From a virus, in the IMG/VR virus record IMGVR_UViG_3300045988_044618, positions 1-39,864 of that record: a DNA stretch of 39,864 bases; one strand, 5' to 3'. The notes beneath the pieces are model-generated. The model was not told where the DNA came from. It searched no databases and saw only the letters and a program-made list of their open reading frames with translations. The translations under genes were made by a program, and so were the position numbers. How positions within the stretch are numbered: the stretch's first letter is position 1; every line of letters starts with the position of its first letter. This document shows, piece after piece, positions 980-39,864 of the stretch.

Positions 980-1008
980 TTGACTATTACTAGAAAATAT
1001 GCTACTAT
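980..1008 (+). promoter_or_regulatory. Rightward sigma-70-type promoter in the genetic switch
   Basis: TTGACT (980-985), 17-nt spacer, TACTAT (1003-1008). The -35 lies inside the inverted repeat TTTCTAG(973-979)-N10-CTAGAAA(990-996). Confidence 0.55.
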
Positions 1009-1094
1009 GAACTTGCGAGATTTATAACAGCATATTTTTAGCTAGTCCGCTGAATTTTAGGGGGCTTGGTTCTTTGTTGCCCTCTATGCTATCT

Positions 1095-1123
1095 ATTATA
1101 CTAGCATTTATGCTAGATGTAAA
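1095..1123 (-). promoter_or_regulatory. Leftward early promoter (drives Cro-like operon)
   Basis: On the minus strand: TTTACA (1123-1118), 17-nt spacer, TATAAT (1100-1095). The spacer is the palindrome CTAGCATTTATGCTAG (1101-1116). Two TTTCTAGC direct repeats lie at 1128-1145. Confidence 0.65.
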
Positions 1124-1173
1124 TAGCTTTCTAGCATTTTCTAGCGAATTAGCAATATGCACAAAGAAACGGT

Positions 1174-1539
1174 GTGATTTGTGTGCGATACGTGGAAAAA
1201 GCCAAGAAAATAGCAAAGAAAAAAGGAATTGCCTTCACGCATATTAGTACAGAGCTTGGAAAAAGTCGTGGCTATTTGTCTGAAATGCTAGCAAACGGGC
1301 GCGATTTGCCAGAGCATATGCTAGCCGATGTTGCCAGTTTGCTAGGAGTCACCGTTGCCGACCTGACCGGGGATTTCAAAAACGAAAAAAAGCCCACCGC
1401 ACAAGGCGATGGGCTAATATCTGGTTTGCCGCAAGATGTACAAAAAATTATTTCTCTTTGCCAAGAGAACCCTCAGCTTGCAAGCGCTCTATTAAATCTT
1501 GCGCAGCAGTTACAAAATCGGTCATCTGATCAGGCGTAA
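1174..1539 (+). CDS. CI-like repressor, XRE-family HTH (about 115-121 aa; start codon uncertain)
   Basis: HTH motif GIAFTHISTELGKSRGYLSEMLANGRDLP. It lies on the plus strand, divergent from the Cro-like genes and next to the switch region. Possible GTG starts are at 1174, 1183 and 1192. Confidence 0.75.
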   Translation: MICVRYVEKAKKIAKKKGIAFTHISTELGKSRGYLSEMLANGRDLPEHMLADVASLLGVTVADLTGDFKNEKKPTAQGDGLISGLPQDVQKIISLCQENPQLASALLNLAQQLQNRSSDQA

Positions 1540-1614
1540 ATTCTGAAATAATTTTTATAAGTTTTTCTGTGTCTGTCATTGCTGATTCCTCCAATCAAAT
1601 AAGGTTGTGATACT

Positions 1615-2526
1615 ATGGGCTTTTTTGACTTTTTGAAGCCGAAACCAAAAGTAAATGTTTCCATAACTACACATGAGCCGACTAAAGATGAAATTGCAAA
1701 GCAATACACTAATTACTGCAAAGCGCAAGCAGAAAAGCGGCACGCAGAGCAGGAAGAGCGTGCAAATGAGTATTTCTTGGCGCTTTCCGCTGATGATCTT
1801 GCAGACAAAAACGGCCTGAAGCCAACAGAAATTTTAATGCTTTCTTATTTAGAGAAATATTCCAGTGGAAAGCCTGTTGCAAAGTTCTGGCATTATGATT
1901 ATGGTGTTGATGACGTTTGGCCTATAATCAAAAAATTGGAATCAATGGGTTTTTCCGAAAACGGGAAATTGACCGAAAAGGGAAAAGAAGAAATAAAAAA
2001 TAACGAATATGTTTATTTTTGGCACAGAAAAACTTACGCTCGTGCTACTTTTTCCTTGTCAGAGTTTTGCCGCGCCGTAAACGCTCGAAGAGACATCCCG
2101 TATCGGGATTTAATATGGGGAAAATACAATAAACTATATATGGAAGCAATTTCGTCTCCAAAAAAATGCCGTGATTTACGATATTCCATGTATGAGTTTT
2201 TGGCAGACGAAAAAAAGTTTAAAACGGCTTTTTCTATGCTACTTGAAATACCTTTTTATGATATGAACTGCCAATATCCTTTTATAGCTCCTGGTATTAT
2301 GCAGGAACTAAAGAAAGCCCAAAAAAAGGCCGGCTTTACTGAAGATCAAATTTTTGATATGGCAAAAGAAAGATACGGCAGGATGCTTGTTGAAAACCCA
2401 ACTGTTCCTGCGATAGATGCCGCTGGTATTGTAACATCCTACATTTTTGGAAAAGATGGTCTCGCTCAAAGAGTTTTGAAATCTTACAATATTGATTGCA
2501 CCCGGCTATTTTCTAGCAACCATTGA
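1615..2526 (+). CDS. Hypothetical protein (303 aa) in AT-rich island between repressor and integrase
   Basis: This is a long uninterrupted ORF on the lysogeny-module strand. It is visibly more AT-rich than the rest of the genome. I recognise no motif, and the SD is weak (AAGG). Confidence 0.6.
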   Translation: MGFFDFLKPKPKVNVSITTHEPTKDEIAKQYTNYCKAQAEKRHAEQEERANEYFLALSADDLADKNGLKPTEILMLSYLEKYSSGKPVAKFWHYDYGVDDVWPIIKKLESMGFSENGKLTEKGKEEIKNNEYVYFWHRKTYARATFSLSEFCRAVNARRDIPYRDLIWGKYNKLYMEAISSPKKCRDLRYSMYEFLADEKKFKTAFSMLLEIPFYDMNCQYPFIAPGIMQELKKAQKKAGFTEDQIFDMAKERYGRMLVENPTVPAIDAAGIVTSYIFGKDGLAQRVLKSYNIDCTRLFSSNH

Positions 2527-2583
2527 TTGTATTTTACACAACTCACAGTTGTATTTCAACACTTTCACAAAAATACTCGTTTG

Positions 2584-2664
2584 TCAAATCTTTATAATCC
2601 GCTTTTTCGGTCTTCTGCGCCGCCCGTGTCTTGGTGGAACATCCAAATCAGGCAGTTTCTTCAT
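2584..2664 (-). CDS. Possible very small basic ORF (26 aa, MKKLPDLDVPPRHGRRRRPKKRIIKI)
   Basis: ATG at 2664 follows GCAAGGAGGG. It overlaps the end of the 40-aa ORF upstream. It is below the ORF-track length cutoff. Confidence 0.25.
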   Translation of the reverse strand: MKKLPDLDVPPRHGRRRRPKKRIIKI

Positions 2665-2770
2665 GGTCTTCTTCCCTCCTTGCACGGTCTTGCAGCACAG
2701 CACGGTACAGGGCTTCAATGTTTGCCGCATTACGGTTTTGGTAATTCTTTAGACGTTCCACGTTATTCAT
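2648..2770 (-). CDS. Possible small ORF (40 aa, MNNVERLKNYQNRNAANIEALYRAVLQDRARREEDHEETA)
   Basis: ATG at 2770 follows a perfect AGGAGG with an 8-nt spacer. It is below the ORF-track cutoff. Confidence 0.35.
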   Translation of the reverse strand: MNNVERLKNYQNRNAANIEALYRAVLQDRARREEDHEETA

Positions 2771-2953
2771 TGTTGATTCCTCCTGTGTTTTCTGTCTACA
2801 GTAAGAATCTTAACATGTTTTTTATACCATAGCTTCCATTTATTTCCATAGCATTTTTTGAAGAAATATTTCTTTATATTTTCTTGATTGCTACGGTAGA
2901 AAAATTTTACCGCATTTGAAGTGCAAAACATGTAAAAAATTGAGGGTGATAAA

Positions 2954-3547
2954 ATGGAAAGTAGAGCTGATTTCCGAGAACGTGAAGGGCTTATTCTTTC
3001 GCAGTGCCGGTTGGAATCCGGGCTTTCGCAAGAATATGTAGCCCGGCAGATGGATGTGAACATCCGCACGGTGCGCAACTGGGAAGAAGGGCTTTCCCCT
3101 ATCCGAAACGATGACCTGTTGATGTGGTTCACCGTCTGCAAACAATCCCCATGGCGCTGGCTGCAGCGAATCTGGATGCCGTCTGCATTCAGCGATACCG
3201 ATACTCCAAACTGGACGGACGAGCAGGTAGACAAGGCACTTTCTGATTATATCGCTCAGATGCCGAGCGTGTACAAGCGAAGGCTGCTGTATATCCTTTG
3301 TGGGGCGCACGGGAGCGATTGGGCGGGCCAGATAGACTTATTGTGCGCTAACGCTCATACGTCCATGCAAAGCCGTGTACGCGTCTGCCAGGCCGTAATA
3401 CAGAACTACCGGATAGATACCGTAACTGGGGATGACCCATGCCAGGAAAGCATCAAGCCGGACTTTGACCGCCTGCAAATATGCCTGCAAGCCGGAGAAG
3501 CTGCCGTTCTGGCAGGCAATGGCGAATATAACGCAAGGGAAAAATAA
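2954..3547 (+). CDS. HTH (XRE-type) protein with unknown ~130-aa C-terminal domain (197 aa)
   Basis: N-terminal motif ESGLSQEYVARQMDVNIRTVRNWEEG. The SD is GAGGGTGA. It lies directly upstream of the integrase on the same strand. Confidence 0.75.
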   Translation: MESRADFREREGLILSQCRLESGLSQEYVARQMDVNIRTVRNWEEGLSPIRNDDLLMWFTVCKQSPWRWLQRIWMPSAFSDTDTPNWTDEQVDKALSDYIAQMPSVYKRRLLYILCGAHGSDWAGQIDLLCANAHTSMQSRVRVCQAVIQNYRIDTVTGDDPCQESIKPDFDRLQICLQAGEAAVLAGNGEYNAREK

Positions 3548-28459: not shown

Positions 28460-29740
28460 TCACCGCCCTCTGTCAAAAATGCTCTTGTACTTTGTATCTG
28501 CCGCATCTCCGGCTTTGCCCGCCGTGCTTTCCATCGCATAACGCACTGCATCAATGTGATGATTGTTCAAATCCGGGTAGCCTTCCAGCACTTCCCCTGT
28601 CTTGCCGTCCCGCTCATACTCGTACTCACTAAACTCTTTCGCCGTGTCCGGGCAACGTTCTGGGTCAATGACAATAGCTTCCAGCATTTGCAGCCATTTT
28701 GTGCCATAGCGAACCGATTTCGGCCCCTTGCGGGCCGGGAACGTCTTTATGCCGTACTTGTTATAGTCCGCAATGGATTTTGGCTCGGCGCTATCCGCGC
28801 AGACTTTATCCTCACGCGTCAGCCCTTTATCCAAAAGCAGTTGCGCAGTATCCCTATTGCTGGTTCTGCGCCGTGTCTGCTCATCAAATATGTACAGCGT
28901 GCGCCGCGCTGCGTCATAGTGCATCGCATTGTATGCCCAAGGGTCAGGGTACCAGCCCCAGTCAACCCCTCGCTTAATGCGGTCAAAGCTGGCAATCTGT
29001 TCATCGGTGATTTTCTCAATCCGCAGATTCTCAAATACTGCCGTGCCGTTGCCGACAACCTCGCCAAGATACTCATGCCGGTATGCTGTTTCGTTTGTGC
29101 GCTCCAAGTATTCAGCATCGGCCAGAAACCGCTCGCCGAGCCATTCTGCGGGCGTTGTTTTGTAGGTGGAATGATGTACTAGCTTTCCCTTGCGGACTTT
29201 CAGAGCGTACCCGTTTGCCCAGTTCCGCGCCATTGCTGGCGGGTTGAAGCTCTTGAACGTGATGAACCAGTCACCGCCGCGCAAGCAGGACTGCTCCACA
29301 TTTCGGATTTGCTCTTCACCGTCAAACTGGTCAAGCTCTTCAAACCACGCAATCCCGATATAGCCGAACGGCATCTTGATTGACTTGACCTTTCCGGGGT
29401 CGTCCATACCGAAAAAAAGCACCTTCTGCCCTGTCGGCAAATAGGTGCATTCCATCGGGCTGACAGTGCATCGGAAATAATCGTGTAACCCCAGCTCGTT
29501 TATCGCCCATACAATCTGGGCATAAACGCTTGTGCGTAATGTATTTGCCACTCGGCGGAACACTGCCGCATGACATTGCGGATGCTTGAGCAGCTGCAAA
29601 ATCAGCTCTATGCTGATATAGCTTGATTTTGTACTGCCGCGCCCGCCTTTGGCGACAAGCTCTTTTACATTGCCTTCCTTGATTTCACGGTGGACTTTGG
29701 CGAAACAAGGGGAAACAATCCCGGACATCTTACAAGTCAT
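28460..29740 (-). CDS. terL: Terminase large subunit (426 aa)
   Basis: It has a Walker A-like motif VAKGGRGSTKSS and a C-terminal nuclease-type region. The start overlaps the TerS stop. Confidence 0.9.
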   Translation of the reverse strand: MTCKMSGIVSPCFAKVHREIKEGNVKELVAKGGRGSTKSSYISIELILQLLKHPQCHAAVFRRVANTLRTSVYAQIVWAINELGLHDYFRCTVSPMECTYLPTGQKVLFFGMDDPGKVKSIKMPFGYIGIAWFEELDQFDGEEQIRNVEQSCLRGGDWFITFKSFNPPAMARNWANGYALKVRKGKLVHHSTYKTTPAEWLGERFLADAEYLERTNETAYRHEYLGEVVGNGTAVFENLRIEKITDEQIASFDRIKRGVDWGWYPDPWAYNAMHYDAARRTLYIFDEQTRRRTSNRDTAQLLLDKGLTREDKVCADSAEPKSIADYNKYGIKTFPARKGPKSVRYGTKWLQMLEAIVIDPERCPDTAKEFSEYEYERDGKTGEVLEGYPDLNNHHIDAVRYAMESTAGKAGDAADTKYKSIFDRGR

Positions 29741-30155
29741 CTATAATTTGCACCTCGCTATCCTGCTGTTGTTCCGGCTTATCTTGCCATCCAAAATTTG
29801 CTCGCAAGCTGAACTGTGCGCCGCCGGAGCCGTCTTTGTCGTACAATCTTTCTTCGGCGTATTGTTCACAAAGGGTCTTTGCGCGCGTAATCGTGTCATT
29901 GAACTCTGGTTTGTTTTGATAATTCAAAAGCGCCTGCCTTGATGCAAAACCAAGCGCAAGCGCCAATCCTGTCACAGTAGGCGGCTTTTTATCGTCATAG
30001 ATGATATAGCCGTTTTTATTTCGCATCGGTTCGCCGTTATCGTCTAAGAACGGCTTTCCTTTACAGGCTTCAAAGTAGGCATCAATCTTTTCTTGCATTG
30101 CCTTTACGCTTCTGTATTTAGGTGGTGCGCCCCCCGGATTTTTTCTTGATGCCAC
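29730..30155 (-). CDS. terS: Terminase small subunit (141 aa from GTG 30155)
   Basis: GAGGTG, 5 nt, then GTG 30155. The sequence is PPKYRSVKAMQEKIDAYFEAC ... PPTVTGLALALGF ... (HTH). The track's longer start at 30191 lies inside a terminator hairpin. Confidence 0.75.
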   Translation of the reverse strand: MASRKNPGGAPPKYRSVKAMQEKIDAYFEACKGKPFLDDNGEPMRNKNGYIIYDDKKPPTVTGLALALGFASRQALLNYQNKPEFNDTITRAKTLCEQYAEERLYDKDGSGGAQFSLRANFGWQDKPEQQQDSEVQIIDDL

Positions 30156-30175
30156 TTTATCACCTCGCTTTACAA

Positions 30176-30204
30176 CACAAAAAGCCCACACAATTTGTGT
30201 AGGC
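30176..30204 (-). terminator. Intrinsic terminator ending the structured RNA
   Basis: On the minus strand: GCCTACAC-AAATT-GTGTGGGC followed by TTTTTGTG. It lies immediately upstream of the terS SD. Confidence 0.75.
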
Positions 30205-30660
30205 TTATATCCCCCAAAACCCCTTTGCGCCGGAGGAAAAGCGCGTTCCCGCCCTACCGGTCTCTGCTATGCCGGTCTCACCCGTTGCGGTGAGCAAATC
30301 CGCAACGTAGTTCAGCAGCACTTGTATTCCGCGCGCTTACCCGCGGTCTCTGCTTTGATGTTATGGGTTCCGGCGATGCGTAACTGCGTCAGTAACGTAG
30401 TCCGCACAAGCAGATGCCGAACGGTTTTCTCGATGTCACCGTCTAAACGTCCCCGAACTTCTCCGCTTTCAAAATCGGTGTGCAATCGGGTATGCGCCCT
30501 GTCGTATAGGGCTATGCACCGTCGATCTTCCGAGGTGTCGGTTATCTATCGCGTTTCCTACGCCGGGCTTTCACCGGTGGGAGCGACCCAGCACGTGCCC
30601 TCAGCCGGACTTGAACCGGCACACCAAGGCTCTTGCCATTGAGCTACAAGGGCATGTGCG
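30205..30660 (-). ncRNA. Candidate large structured non-coding RNA (~450 nt) beginning with a tRNA-like element
   Basis: There is no credible ORF on either strand. The region is GC-rich with many hairpins. A possible long-range helix pairs 30581-30574 with 30260-30252. GCAGAGACCG and ACTACGTT motifs are each duplicated. The region is bounded by a tRNA and a terminator. Confidence 0.5.
30596..30653 (-). ncRNA. tRNA-like element lacking an anticodon arm
   Basis: It has an acceptor-like stem GCCCTTG/TGAGGGC, a D-arm GCTC-AATGGCAA-GAGC and a T-arm GCCGG-TTCAAGT-CCGGC. Only 8 nt (CTTGGTGT) link the D and T arms. There is no CCA. The stem extends to 13 bp (30659..30591). Confidence 0.6.
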
Positions 30661-30741
30661 GCTTGCCGTTTGCACGACCATTGTCATCATTTGTGAGGTA
30701 TACCGCGCACGCTCACACAGACAGGTTGCGACCCTGCCGTC

Positions 30742-30815
30742 TGGCGCGGGTGGAAGGTCTTGACCCCTCATCTTGCGGTTTTGGATACCGCAGTTCTGCA
30801 TTGAACTACACCCGC
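30742..30815 (-). tRNA. tRNA-Trp (anticodon CCA), 74 nt with encoded CCA
   Basis: It has a perfect 7-bp acceptor stem GCGGGTG/CACCCGC, discriminator G and anticodon arm GCGGT-ATCCAAA-ACCGC. The D-loop (AATGCA) lacks GG and the T-loop is GTCAAGA. Confidence 0.75.
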
Positions 30816-31188
30816 ATAAAGGCGCGTCAGTTGCGCGTGTTGCACTTTTTGTAGGCCAAAAGTAAAGCTCATTTTAATTAACTGTGTCCAAGTCGGTATA
30901 AATTAAAAATGAAATTCACTTTTTTAATAACTTGTGCAACAGAGGCTTGCCGCGATCTGTTGGTACTGCACATAGGTCTTGCACCTTTGCCACGCCGTAG
31001 CTTGCGGAGCGCAGCGCCCTTGCTGTATTGACTTGTCAGGCCAAGTTTGCGGCTGGCTATGCAGCAAATAAAATGCCGGTCTTTCCCGGCTGTCAGTATC
31101 GAGAATAGGAGGTTTTGCTATGAACTGTAATGTACCCTCTTTACAGTTCCCAGCATATTCATAATACCACTTGACAACGTCCCCACAG

Positions 31189-31578
31189 TTACCCTTTTTT
31201 CTTGTCCAAAAGCAAGAAAAATTTTCTTCTGATTTCGTAAAACTGCCGTCTGCCGCAATACACAGGCTGGTATTCGTAAGCCTTTCCCTCTGTCACGTTT
31301 TTCAAAAGAGCGCACCAGTTTAAAGGGTCTGCTTCTCTTGCCGCGTCCTCAATGATTCTGACATCTGTGCTTAACTTTAGCGCTCTGTCCGCCTTTCTAG
31401 CTGTTGGGTCTGACTTTCCGTTTCCGTGCGGCAAACCGTCATTTGAAACAGCATCAAGCCCTCTTGCACTAGCAATTTCCAACCGCATTTCAGTGTATCT
31501 TTTGCAAAAGTGCTTTAATTCAAGGTATCTTTCTTTTGAAATTCCATATTCATCTAGGTTGAGCGGTCTTTCTCTCAT
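31189..31578 (-). CDS. Putative late-gene transcriptional regulator (sigma-70 region-4-like / ArpU-RinA-position, 129 aa)
   Basis: It is the last gene before the packaging module. The motif pattern is EYGISKERYLELKHFCKRYTEM ... DGLPHGNGKSDPTA ... CGRRQFYEIRRKFFLLL (from memory). Confidence 0.55.
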   Translation of the reverse strand: MRERPLNLDEYGISKERYLELKHFCKRYTEMRLEIASARGLDAVSNDGLPHGNGKSDPTARKADRALKLSTDVRIIEDAAREADPLNWCALLKNVTEGKAYEYQPVYCGRRQFYEIRRKFFLLLDKKKG

Positions 31579-31699
31579 TTTTGCTCCTTTCTTCCAGTTT
31601 CATGCAGCGCGGAAGCGTGCAAATATCGCCATTCTTCCACTCGCATGTCGCGCAAAGATGTTTGCGGGCGTATTCATCAACTAGTTGCTGTTTTGTCAT
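31550..31699 (-). CDS. Small Cys-rich protein (49 aa)
   Basis: GGAGGTGA, 3 nt, then ATG 31699. Sequence: MTKQQLVDEYARKHLCATCEWKNGDICTLPRCMKLEERSKNERKTAQPR. It is below the ORF-track cutoff. Confidence 0.55.
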   Translation of the reverse strand: MTKQQLVDEYARKHLCATCEWKNGDICTLPRCMKLEERSKNERKTAQPR

Positions 31700-31721
31700 G
31701 GGTCACCTCCGGGGGTAGAAG

Positions 31722-31922
31722 TCATTTTAGAAGCCTCCTTATGATTCTATAACATGCAATGCCGATGCGGGTTACGACCAGCAGCGGCCAGAAAACAAGG
31801 ACAATAACGTTGTCTGCGCCGTCTACGGTGTCCATTCGGTCTGTGTGGTTGATATACAGGACGGCGAGCAGGCCGCACAGGTCGTAAACACAGACTGCGG
31901 CGATAACAAGGATAATGGTCAT
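31722..31922 (-). CDS. Small two-TM membrane protein (66 aa)
   Basis: The ATG overlaps the upstream stop. Hydrophobic segments are IILVIAAVCVYDLCGLLAVLYI and VIVLVFWPLLVVTRIGIA. Confidence 0.65.
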   Translation of the reverse strand: MTIILVIAAVCVYDLCGLLAVLYINHTDRMDTVDGADNVIVLVFWPLLVVTRIGIACYRIIRRLLK

Positions 31923-39404: not shown

Positions 39405-39864
39405 TCGGACACCTCATGATTTTCTTTTTCATCAGAAAAATGCAGCTCCATCAAGTCGGCAATCGCGAGGTACTCTTTAGCGTATTTGCTGCCGCCGTGG
39501 GTTTTCTTGACGATTTCGCGGAACTGCGCTAAATCACCATAAAAGCAACCGCACTGTATGCGGATAATTTTATCCTTGCAGCGGAAAAATGTGGTCGCGC
39601 GGAAATAACGGCCAAAGCCTGTAACGACGGCAAAGTCTGCATCGCCGTAGACCCACGCATTGCCGGAGACCTGCGCATTGCCGTAGACCCACGCATTGCC
39701 GGAGACCTGCGCATTGCCGTAGACCCGCGCATTGCCGTAGACCCACGCATTGCCGGAGACCTGCGCATTGCCGGAGACCCACGCATCGCCGTAGACCCAC
39801 GCATCGCCGGAGACCTGCGCATTGCCGAAGACCTGCGCATCGCCGGAGACCCACGCATTGCCGT
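39401..39864 (-). CDS. Hexapeptide (GNAxVx) repeat protein, 3' part (repeats + C-terminal domain); the 5' part is at 1..200
   Basis: The frame ending at TGA 39403-39401 reads ...GNAWVYGNAQVSGNAWVYGDADFAVVTGFGRYFRATTFFRCKDKIIRIQCGCFYGDLAQFREIVKKTHGGSKYAKEYLAIADLMELHFSDEKENHEVSE. The two track ORFs here (MRGSPAMRRS..., MGLRRCAGLR...) are the wrong frames of the same repeat. Confidence 0.8.
   Translation of the reverse strand, partial: GNAWVSGDAQVFGNAQVSGDAWVYGDAWVSGNAQVSGNAWVYGNARVYGNAQVSGNAWVYGNAQVSGNAWVYGDADFAVVTGFGRYFRATTFFRCKDKIIRIQCGCFYGDLAQFREIVKKTHGGSKYAKEYLAIADLMELHFSDEKENHEVSE
39647..39862 (-). repeat. Twelve tandem 18-bp units encoding G-[ND]-A-x-V-x hexapeptides
   Basis: The units are GGCAATGCGTGGGTCTAC / GGCAATGCGCAGGTCTCC and variants. 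The unit containing GAAGAC (GDAQVF) occurs only once per genome copy. Confidence 0.95.

Follow-up and report, generated by a model that had tools for sequence, protein, structure and literature searches.

The locus considered here raises the question of what a phage keeps in the about 1 kb between the gene at 31189-31578 and terS, the first gene of its packaging operon. It belongs to IMG/VR virus record IMGVR_UViG_3300045988_044618, which was analyzed over its whole length (39,864 nucleotides (nt), hereafter the window), and it lies on the minus strand, where it is read from higher to lower window coordinates. A preliminary description of this DNA, made by eye, had noticed a tRNA-like element without an anticodon arm (hereafter the armless element) at the head of a structured RNA, and had suggested that the RNA might be a large phage noncoding RNA (ncRNA) of the ROOL/GOLLD kind, that the tRNA-like piece might be a handle through which RNase P and RNase Z release it, or that the region might be a decayed tRNA array. 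The elements named there are present, but the region reaches further upstream than was described, to 31065. Its best explanation is an island of phage ncRNA and tRNA that runs in the same direction as the late genes, in which the armless element may serve as a processing signal.

Scanning viral contigs with a D12 core pattern, named for the Rfam motif D12-methyl (RF02950), gave 110 loci, and a pattern for the armless element gave 89 contigs, 47 of them new. The modular island is kept in about 150 related gut-phage contigs and in one Gemmiger genome, and BLAST of the window spacer against related loci reveals a mosaic of modules. Their order is a terminator-like hairpin with a U-tract, a cloverleaf-like RNA (A2), optional tRNA cassettes, a three-hairpin module (module B), a slot holding a tRNA or tRNA-like element, a 5-nt spacer, the core RNA with D12-methyl at its end, a terminator (present in about 70% of loci) and the first packaging gene. 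Within the core, a 5' domain, a variable domain, a nested three-helix module (module D), a second variable stretch and D12-methyl follow one another.

The armless element, a 58-nt "top-half" mimic made of an acceptor stem, a D arm and a T arm, matches the Rfam tRNA model from end to end (positions 1-71; 40.9 bits, gathering score 29; E=2e-5 over the whole window), except that 4 nt take the place of the 18 model positions of the anticodon arm, in agreement with the claim that just this arm is missing. ARAGORN made no tRNA call on it. The acceptor stem GCCCTTG/TGAGGGC has five Watson-Crick and two G-U pairs, an 8-nt linker (CUUGGUGU) stands where a tRNA has position 26, the anticodon arm and the variable loop, A occupies position 73, and CCA is not encoded; the stem, both arms, the linker and the missing CCA can be read directly in the sequence, as they had been. 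With a canonical tRNA the element shares the acceptor stem, a D arm with GG and a T arm with UUCAAGU, and the 3' part of its linker resembles a variable loop, whereas the whole anticodon stem-loop is absent and the element cannot decode. The acceptor stem had also been thought extendable to 13 bp. Five of the six extra pairs do form in the window, but the flanks of relatives are unrelated (for example, TTTTATAT upstream), and the extension does not hold in the family.

Conservation of this element extends over 89 viral contigs, among which its acceptor and T stems vary by compensation. In the T stem a C-G pair is replaced by U-A (GCUGG/CCAGU), and in the acceptor stem, which CAAGGGC closes in some copies, G-U is replaced by G-C and C-G by A-U; such compensations are seen among family members as well as in copies found in other contexts. 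In 88 of 88 copies a U directly precedes the element. Copies with other stems occur without the core RNA, one of them between portal and scaffold genes (L146) and another in L111. These data bear on the possibility that the 58-nt element is a neutral relic, namely a functionless tRNA pseudogene that lost its anticodon arm in a decaying array. The tRNA content does vary widely among relatives and some loci carry D-arm fragments beside the armless element, so that the idea of a decayed array retains an island with variable tRNA content and some fragments. However, the armless element itself is not decaying, because it is conserved with compensatory changes and recurs in unrelated phages, where at least 85 unrelated armless elements (among the matches listed) have well-paired acceptor and T stems; unlike a pseudogene, it is conserved as such rather than degrading. 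A neutral relic is largely refuted by this conservation, and we find it hardly credible. One of the fragments, the D-arm-like AGCATTGCTCATCTGGTAGAA of about 20 nt, lies between the armless element and the core in seven loci (L018, L052, L125, L137, L139, L154, and L157) and looks like a scar of tRNA cassette turnover.

In the window the armless element ends 5 nt before the conserved core, and across loci the slot 5' of the core is filled by a tRNA or tRNA-like element in about 133 of 136 cases, always ending 3-6 nt before the core start GCUGGGUCGC. The occupant is the 58-nt armless element in 83 loci, an odd 86-nt tRNA called "His(atg)" by ARAGORN in 16, tRNA-Thr in 6, tRNA-Trp in 2, and another element with an acceptor stem and a T arm but without an ARAGORN call in about 26; two of the three exceptions have a tRNA-Trp 60 nt upstream. 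The presence of unrelated sequences of one shape in one slot argues for a shape-dependent role. The odd tRNA, 84-86 nt long (L001 8501-8584, L007, L011, L016, and others), scores 45 bits with the Rfam tRNA model and has an irregular anticodon region. In one contig (L037 6629-6765), a tRNA-Met is followed after 5 nt by a shortened D12-methyl (63.8 bits) without any core RNA between them, implying that D12-methyl can sit directly behind a tRNA.

Comparison of relatives indicates that the core, about 420 nt in the window (30591 to ~30172) and 270-420 nt across loci, is a structured RNA as far as its local helices are concerned. Among 46 non-redundant cores, eight local helices (48 pairs) are paired in 96.7% of cells, compared with 28-44% when partners were slid by 1-3 columns, and 11 pairs change on both sides; the number of double-change cells, 91, was reached by none of 500 shuffles (24 +/- 5). 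The 5' domain (to about 30537) is nearly invariant in 134 loci. The 4-bp stem of its first hairpin is invariant while the loop varies, and hairpins 2 and 3 show one compensatory change each; CCGG-UGAAAGC-CCGG, one of the hairpins noticed by eye, has the compensatory variant CAGG/CCUG. Module D, to which helices 4 and 5 of the eight-helix count belong, was also examined, with agreeing results, in 55 distinct sequences, in which 94% of cells are paired (27-45% in shifted controls) and 4 of 19 pairs are compensatory. In the small hairpin CCGC...GCGG, one pair alternates between C-G and U-A (18 sequences each). The version of the variable domain present in the window, V1b, varies too little in its 15 sequences for a structure test. 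The evidence for structure is comparative. Folded as a single sequence, 30660-30170 has an unremarkable energy (z=-1.6), and its 3' part (30312-30165) reaches z=-3.4.

No long-range helix in the core is supported by covariation. The domain-closing helix that had been proposed between CCCACCGG and CCGGTAGGG shows no covariation, is broken by all 33 of 33 variant cells and competes with hairpin 2 of D12-methyl, which covaries. Two other long-range pairings were tried, between 5' UGGGU and ACCCA at 30367 and between 5' CUCCC and the D12-methyl tail, and neither found support, because the partners either show no variation or show variation that is not compensated. The duplicated GCAGAGACCG and ACTACGTT motifs pointed out in the window are not kept as pairs in relatives.

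The region had been left unassigned by eye, and most of it is indeed outside Rfam, but its 3' 64 nt are the known D12-methyl motif, which had been overlooked. The copy in the window is full-length, spanning model positions 1-64 of 64, and scores 89.1 bits (E=3.6e-15; gathering score 57), with both hairpins, the junction and the G-rich tail, and the GTTGCGG...CCGCAAC hairpin of the preliminary description is its hairpin 1. Hairpin 2 occurs in three covarying versions (ACCGG/CCGGU, CCCGG/CCGGG, and GUCGG/CCGAC) and hairpin 1 has two covarying pairs, and the GGGUGAG junction and the 3' AGGGCGGG tail are nearly invariant. The motif reportedly comes from the 2017 survey of Weinberg et al., and its name presumably derives from a location upstream of D12-class N6-adenine DNA methyltransferase genes. 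The main text of Weinberg et al. 2017 (PMC5737381) makes no mention of it, and a literature search of partial coverage returned nothing relevant on the motif. Relatives include copies upstream of methylase genes, whereas the gene next to the motif in the window is terS; and while the Rfam model comprises 64 nt, here and in about 134 loci the motif is the 3' end of a 270-420-nt RNA behind a tRNA-shaped element. Other Rfam motifs were found in related contigs, namely RAGATH-5 (L064 6298-6350, minus strand, 51 bits) and FuFi-1 (L126 11551-11765, plus strand, 116 bits).

The same comparisons speak to whether the region acts as DNA instead, as a pac/cos or recombination site before the terminase genes in which hairpins are incidental. 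It does lie directly upstream of terminase genes, homology among loci stops right after AGGGCGGG or right after the terminator U-tract, and the G-rich tail of D12-methyl has what we take to be a resemblance to the lambda cohesive-end sequence. However, the stems change by compensation while loops and junctions stay fixed, as expected of RNA, and G-U pairs that never change, in the acceptor stem and in P2 of module D (55 of 55 sequences), would become A-C mismatches on the other strand, so that a DNA packaging site is very unlikely. Moreover, incomplete loci end at no common position near the motif, although these stretches may not reflect real contig ends, and the 55-nt terminal repeat of the circular window lies elsewhere. 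A protein-coding gene was rejected as well. Neither Pfam nor NCBIfam matches any open reading frame (ORF) of the spacer, the spacing of conserved anchors falls into all three residues modulo 3 and lacks 3-periodicity, and the most conserved stretch carries 1- and 2-nt indels. The statement that the spacer holds no credible ORF stands on these grounds, with the qualification that one frame antisense to the RNA is largely stop-free (median 105 aa versus 80 in shuffles); it runs antisense through the tRNAs.

How the armless element and the core could be connected is suggested by what tRNA maturation enzymes recognize. RNase P, RNase Z and the CCA-adding enzyme recognize the acceptor stem, the T arm and the D/T elbow, and bacterial RNase P prefers U at position -1. 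The armless mimic keeps the acceptor stem, T arm, D arm and elbow, and would be recognized as a substrate by the host enzymes that process tRNA ends. The RNase P cut would fall between the element and the invariant U that directly precedes it, and RNase Z or an equivalent would cut after A73, which is proposed because CCA is not encoded; the core RNA freed by these cuts would have its 5' end fixed 5 nt before its first hairpin. A processing signal of this kind would be consistent with the shape-defined slot, the U at -1, the small hairpin at the core start and the fact that modules join at CCA ends, the tRNA-Trp cassette being placed exactly between the ...ACCA of A2 and module B. It is the best supported of the three hypotheses first offered, with the cleavage itself inferred from comparison of loci. 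We nevertheless hold it tentatively, at somewhat less than even weight, because the adjacency of tRNA and core could come from a recombination hot spot at which tRNA cassettes are swapped. Several further points weigh against it. The loci are closely related and mosaic, and the slot counts are thus not independent events. Terminator-like hairpins with U-tracts precede A2 and many tRNA-like modules, which makes transcription as one precursor questionable, and a scan of 29800-31800 for sigma-70-type promoters found none. Solitary armless elements, described below, may have a function of their own, such as a decoy or a 5' cap. Finally, the function given to the core in this proposal, a cis action of the core and D12-methyl on late or packaging gene expression, is a lean rather than a result.

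This lean comes from the 3' end of the island. The intrinsic terminator that had been seen just before the Shine-Dalgarno (SD) sequence of terS was recovered by a terminator scan, 17 nt before that ribosome-binding site, and the placement of terS, with its SD and GTG at 30166-30153, was confirmed together with terL by Pfam (terS, GP3_package, 2.5e-20; terL, the next gene, Terminase_3). Across loci the terminator starts 30-49 nt after D12-methyl in about 102 of 146 cases, with compensatory stem variants and different genes behind it. With the terminator and the SD so close together, a promoter for terS cannot fit between them; transcription of the late genes must then pass through the RNA unit, and this requirement favors a cis role. 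In addition, D12-methyl always directly precedes the first gene of the packaging module, whichever gene that is: terS in about 34 loci, a terL-like gene in about 30, and otherwise a D12-class adenine methylase (a MethyltransfD12 gene in L008), a ParB-methylase, a portal gene or another gene. An alternative to the processing signal is therefore that D12-methyl and the terminator form a late-operon leader or attenuator, a conditional stop before the packaging genes relieved by put-like antitermination or governed by a riboswitch-type sensor, with the tRNA-like pieces as island cargo. This overlaps with the processing proposal on the role of the core, and it denies any processing role to the armless element. 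At about 70% of loci, an SD and a start codon come within about 25 nt of a strong terminator, too close for a promoter to fit; besides its two hairpins, D12-methyl has a conserved single-stranded G-rich tail that could pair with downstream UUUUCCUCC as far as can be read from the sequence; and armless elements of other phages lie between late activators (RinA, ArpU) and terS. Nonetheless, mutually exclusive terminator/antiterminator pairing was looked for and none was found, about 30% of D12-methyl loci have no terminator, Rfam types D12-methyl as a small RNA gene, and the constant tRNA-shaped slot is left unexplained. The terminator also travels with the RNA before different genes, like the end of an RNA gene, which fits a self-contained RNA gene equally. 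Taken together, we regard a leader as rather unlikely, though worth weighing. In one relative (L022), a 188-aa ORF upstream of the island had been guessed to be terS, which Pfam does not support.

If the island is read as a self-contained RNA gene, its product could, like GOLLD and ROOL, be an abundant, structured RNA with a function in trans, ended by its own terminator, possibly forming higher-order assemblies, and unrelated to the genes behind it. GOLLD and ROOL are phage or prophage RNAs of unknown function that lie in or beside tRNA islands and have conserved and variable parts (PMC12286853). The present RNA is likewise phage-encoded and placed in a tRNA island, tRNAs can be embedded in it, several of its helices covary and several loops are conserved in an elaborate structure, it has its own terminator in most loci, and its conserved ends with a swappable middle recall the conserved and variable halves of GOLLD (PMC12286853). 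On the other hand, no ROOL (RF03087) or GOLLD (RF01998) match reached the gathering score in the window, and on 30100-31300 no match to ROOL, GOLLD, tmRNA, RNase P or group I/II introns was found even at E<=10, so the suggestion of a ROOL/GOLLD kind holds for the general organization and not for membership. The core has only 270-420 nt, compared with about 580 and more than 800 nt for those RNAs, it stands at the head of a packaging operon, and it is known here from sequence alone, whereas GOLLD and ROOL form multimeric cages and pseudoknots. Its folding energy is not exceptional, no long-range helix is supported, and about 30% of loci run straight into the coding region. A stand-alone RNA acting in trans thus appears unlikely. 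In the whole window, the only Rfam matches above threshold were two to the tRNA model and one to D12-methyl; a permissive scan of 30100-31300 added only matches at chance level, RAGATH-32 (16.8 bits versus a threshold of 41.8) among them. tmRNA was rejected too, with no ARAGORN or Rfam match and a tRNA-like element that is contiguous rather than split.

The features of the island in the window are collected below, including those upstream of the armless element.

Features of the RNA island and the first packaging gene in the window, in the direction of transcription
Feature	Position	Strand	Description
Terminator-like hairpin GCCGGGAAAGACCGGC with U-tract (AUUUUAUUU)	31066..31090	-	Found by terminator scan; ends exactly at the first base of A2
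A2, cloverleaf-like RNA	30961..31065	-	105 nt; 8-bp closing stem, three arms (the first of variable length), four-way junction, 3' tail UACCA
tRNA-Trp cassette	30742..30960	-	AT-rich spacer, small hairpin with UUUAU, tRNA-Trp(CCA) at 30815-30742
Module B	30654..30741	-	Three hairpins at 30738-30720, 30717-30692 and 30678-30665 (the last with a GCAA tetraloop)
Armless tRNA-like element	30596..30653	-	58 nt; acceptor stem, D arm, T arm
Core, 5' domain	30537..30591	-	Hairpins UGGG/CCCA (30590-30578), CCGG/CCGG (30577-30563) and CGU.G/CGCG (30562-30550), then conserved AUAGAUAACC
Core, variable domain	30419..30536	-	Version V1b; an unrelated version V1a or a short version between conserved flanks in other loci
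Core, module D	30347..30418	-	Nested helices P1 UCUGCUU/AAGCAGA, P2 GUGCG/CGCAU and P3 ACU.CGU/ACG.AGU; conserved UACUG loop
Core, small hairpin CCGC...GCGG	30329..30346	-	Starts the second variable stretch (30346-30308)
Core, D12-methyl (RF02950)	30244..30307	-	Two hairpins, GGGUGAG junction, single-stranded G-rich tail AGGGCGGGAACG
3' end of the RNA unit	30172..30243	-	Hairpin GCGC/GCGC (30244-30227), G/U-rich stretch, 11-bp terminator (30206-30182), U-tract
terS	29730..30166	-	SD GAGGUG (30166-30161), GTG start at 30155; first gene of the packaging operon

The modules upstream of the slot are also supported by comparison. A2 has no Rfam match on the minus strand even at E<=10, and in 59 distinct sequences (82-121 nt) 98.7% of cells are paired, against 28-53% in shifted controls, with 8 of 25 pairs compensatory. 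In related loci, a hairpin and a U-run directly precede A2 in 91 of 96 copies, and the base at -1 is U in 96 of 96. Module B, flanked upstream by the CCA end of the preceding module and downstream by the armless element, is paired in 98.7% of cells in 27 distinct sequences, with 4 of 20 pairs compensatory. The tRNA-Trp gene reported earlier was the only tRNA called by ARAGORN and scores 51.6 bits with the Rfam tRNA model. Its cassette is an insertion, as L010, L015, L025 and others join 30961 straight to 30744 at a shared CCA; loci without it may carry Met, Thr, Ser or Asp tRNAs, and relatives hold 0-4 tRNAs in the spacer. Terminator-like hairpins followed by UUUUAUAU (31090-31066 and 30850-30816 in the window, and in many relatives) reach precisely to the first base of a tRNA or tRNA-like module. 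They may be terminators, RNase P leader elements or protective hairpins at the 3' end of the upstream fragment; one might speculate that an RNase P cut at such a site would leave an upstream fragment that ends in a protective hairpin.

The island is carried by a complete temperate phage genome, a circular assembly with a 55-nt terminal repeat and with integrase and helix-turn-helix (HTH) repressor genes, nearly all of whose genes are on the minus strand. The Gemmiger metagenome-assembled genome is the sole species-representative genome with the same RNA motif, and the other close relatives are all viral contigs. In GenBank, the nearest terL matches come from human faecal samples, and terL shares no more than about 47% identity with its counterparts in phages of Blautia and C. 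perfringens. A BLAST search with the complete spacer gave no match among 50,697 GenBank phage records, implying that cultured relatives lack the RNA island. The gene upstream of the island had been labeled late-regulator-like, a label that found no support: its sole match is PHROG 11237 (function unknown), and it has no Pfam or NCBIfam match, RinA and ArpU included. Across the window ends (1-54 and 39639-39863) runs a tandem array of about 12 copies of an 18-nt (54-nt) repeat, with the 55-nt terminal repeat inside it. On the plus strand, 1000-3000 has a GC content of 37-40% compared with about 50% elsewhere and contains two ORFs (1615-2526 and 2527-2832) without Pfam matches; this stretch adjoins the HTH gene and the integrase and may be moron or accessory cargo.

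Armless elements are not confined to this family. A generic pattern, with a D arm followed by a T arm within 6-14 nt, was used to scan viral contigs and found, among the matches listed (to which all counts in this paragraph refer), more than 120 viral contigs from very different samples. These contain 101 distinct armless elements of 55-62 nt. In 85 of them, whose acceptor sequences are unrelated, the T stem is fully paired (5 of 5) and the acceptor stem lacks no more than one of its 7 pairs, a degree of acceptor pairing (at least 6 of 7) estimated to arise in about 1% of random sequences. Most reach the Rfam tRNA threshold (38-56 bits). In unrelated phages, 70 of 87 are solitary, having no tRNA within 1.5 kb, and 61 versus 11 have the same orientation as the flanking genes. 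An A at position 73 is found in 58% and a U at -1 in 53% of 88, and two possible hints of charging are rare, the alanine identity pair G3:U70 being present in only 6 and an encoded CCA in only 7 of these 88. Several lie directly upstream of terS, or 77-223 nt downstream of late regulators of the RinA or ArpU family. The loci L159-L257 represent viral contigs from many environments with generic armless elements, and the cultured Bacteroides phage BF1-TP2 (L258, PQ571263.1, ~67160-67220) has one in an unannotated gap. Next to one armless element, 125 nt of L220 (135-259, plus strand) match the Rfam tRNA model at 49.9 bits, a length that points to a tRNA carrying a large insertion or intron. No description of anticodon-less tRNA-like elements in phages was found in the searchable literature, the coverage of which was partial. 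It is possible, although we are more doubtful of it than of the processing role in the window, that armless top-half mimics of 55-62 nt constitute a widespread class of phage RNA that would recruit host tRNA-processing or elbow/acceptor-binding factors, either as cut marks, often in late or packaging leaders, or as decoys, and that D12-methyl would be the 3' end of an RNA of about 350-420 nt released in this way.

Several known systems offer parallels. The mascRNA of MALAT1 and its MEN-beta counterpart (Rfam mascRNA-menRNA) have a tRNA-like fold with a degenerate anticodon arm, and in MALAT1 RNase P and RNase Z cut at this fold, which defines RNA ends. Like them, the element in the window is a small tRNA-like fold at the boundary of a longer ncRNA; however, mascRNA is eukaryotic, its tRNA-like piece lies 3' of the long RNA rather than 5' as in the phage, where cleavage is a proposal, and there is no sequence relationship. 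Phage T4 has a tRNA cluster with the co-processed stable RNAs C and D, and the C4 RNA of P1/P7 and the CI RNA of P4 are matured by RNase P. These are phage ncRNAs that share a transcript with tRNAs or have tRNA-like acceptor ends, but their sequences, sizes and hosts differ, and none is known to have an anticodon-arm-deleted tRNA or D12-methyl. In the put RNA of HK022 and in the pR'-6S RNA-tR' region of lambda, a two-hairpin or short terminated RNA lies between the late regulator and the late operon, and its terminator is read through; here the analogy concerns layout only, with no sequence or model match.

For D12-methyl, which is already catalogued, these results mean that an orphan 64-nt motif becomes part of a several-fold longer modular RNA fixed at the head of the packaging operon, and they add a further example of the unexplained link between large phage ncRNAs and tRNA islands. 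What may be new is the occurrence of armless tRNA mimics across phages: the architecture recurs with unrelated sequences in many phage lineages, Infernal would label such elements as tRNAs while ARAGORN misses them, and they have probably been mis-annotated or ignored. The class has a cultured host-phage pair in B. fragilis and phage BF1-TP2. If RNase P and RNase Z do cleave at these elements, phages would punctuate their transcripts with the tRNA-processing machinery of the host, comparable to the tRNA punctuation of mitochondrial transcripts and to the MALAT1-mascRNA system.

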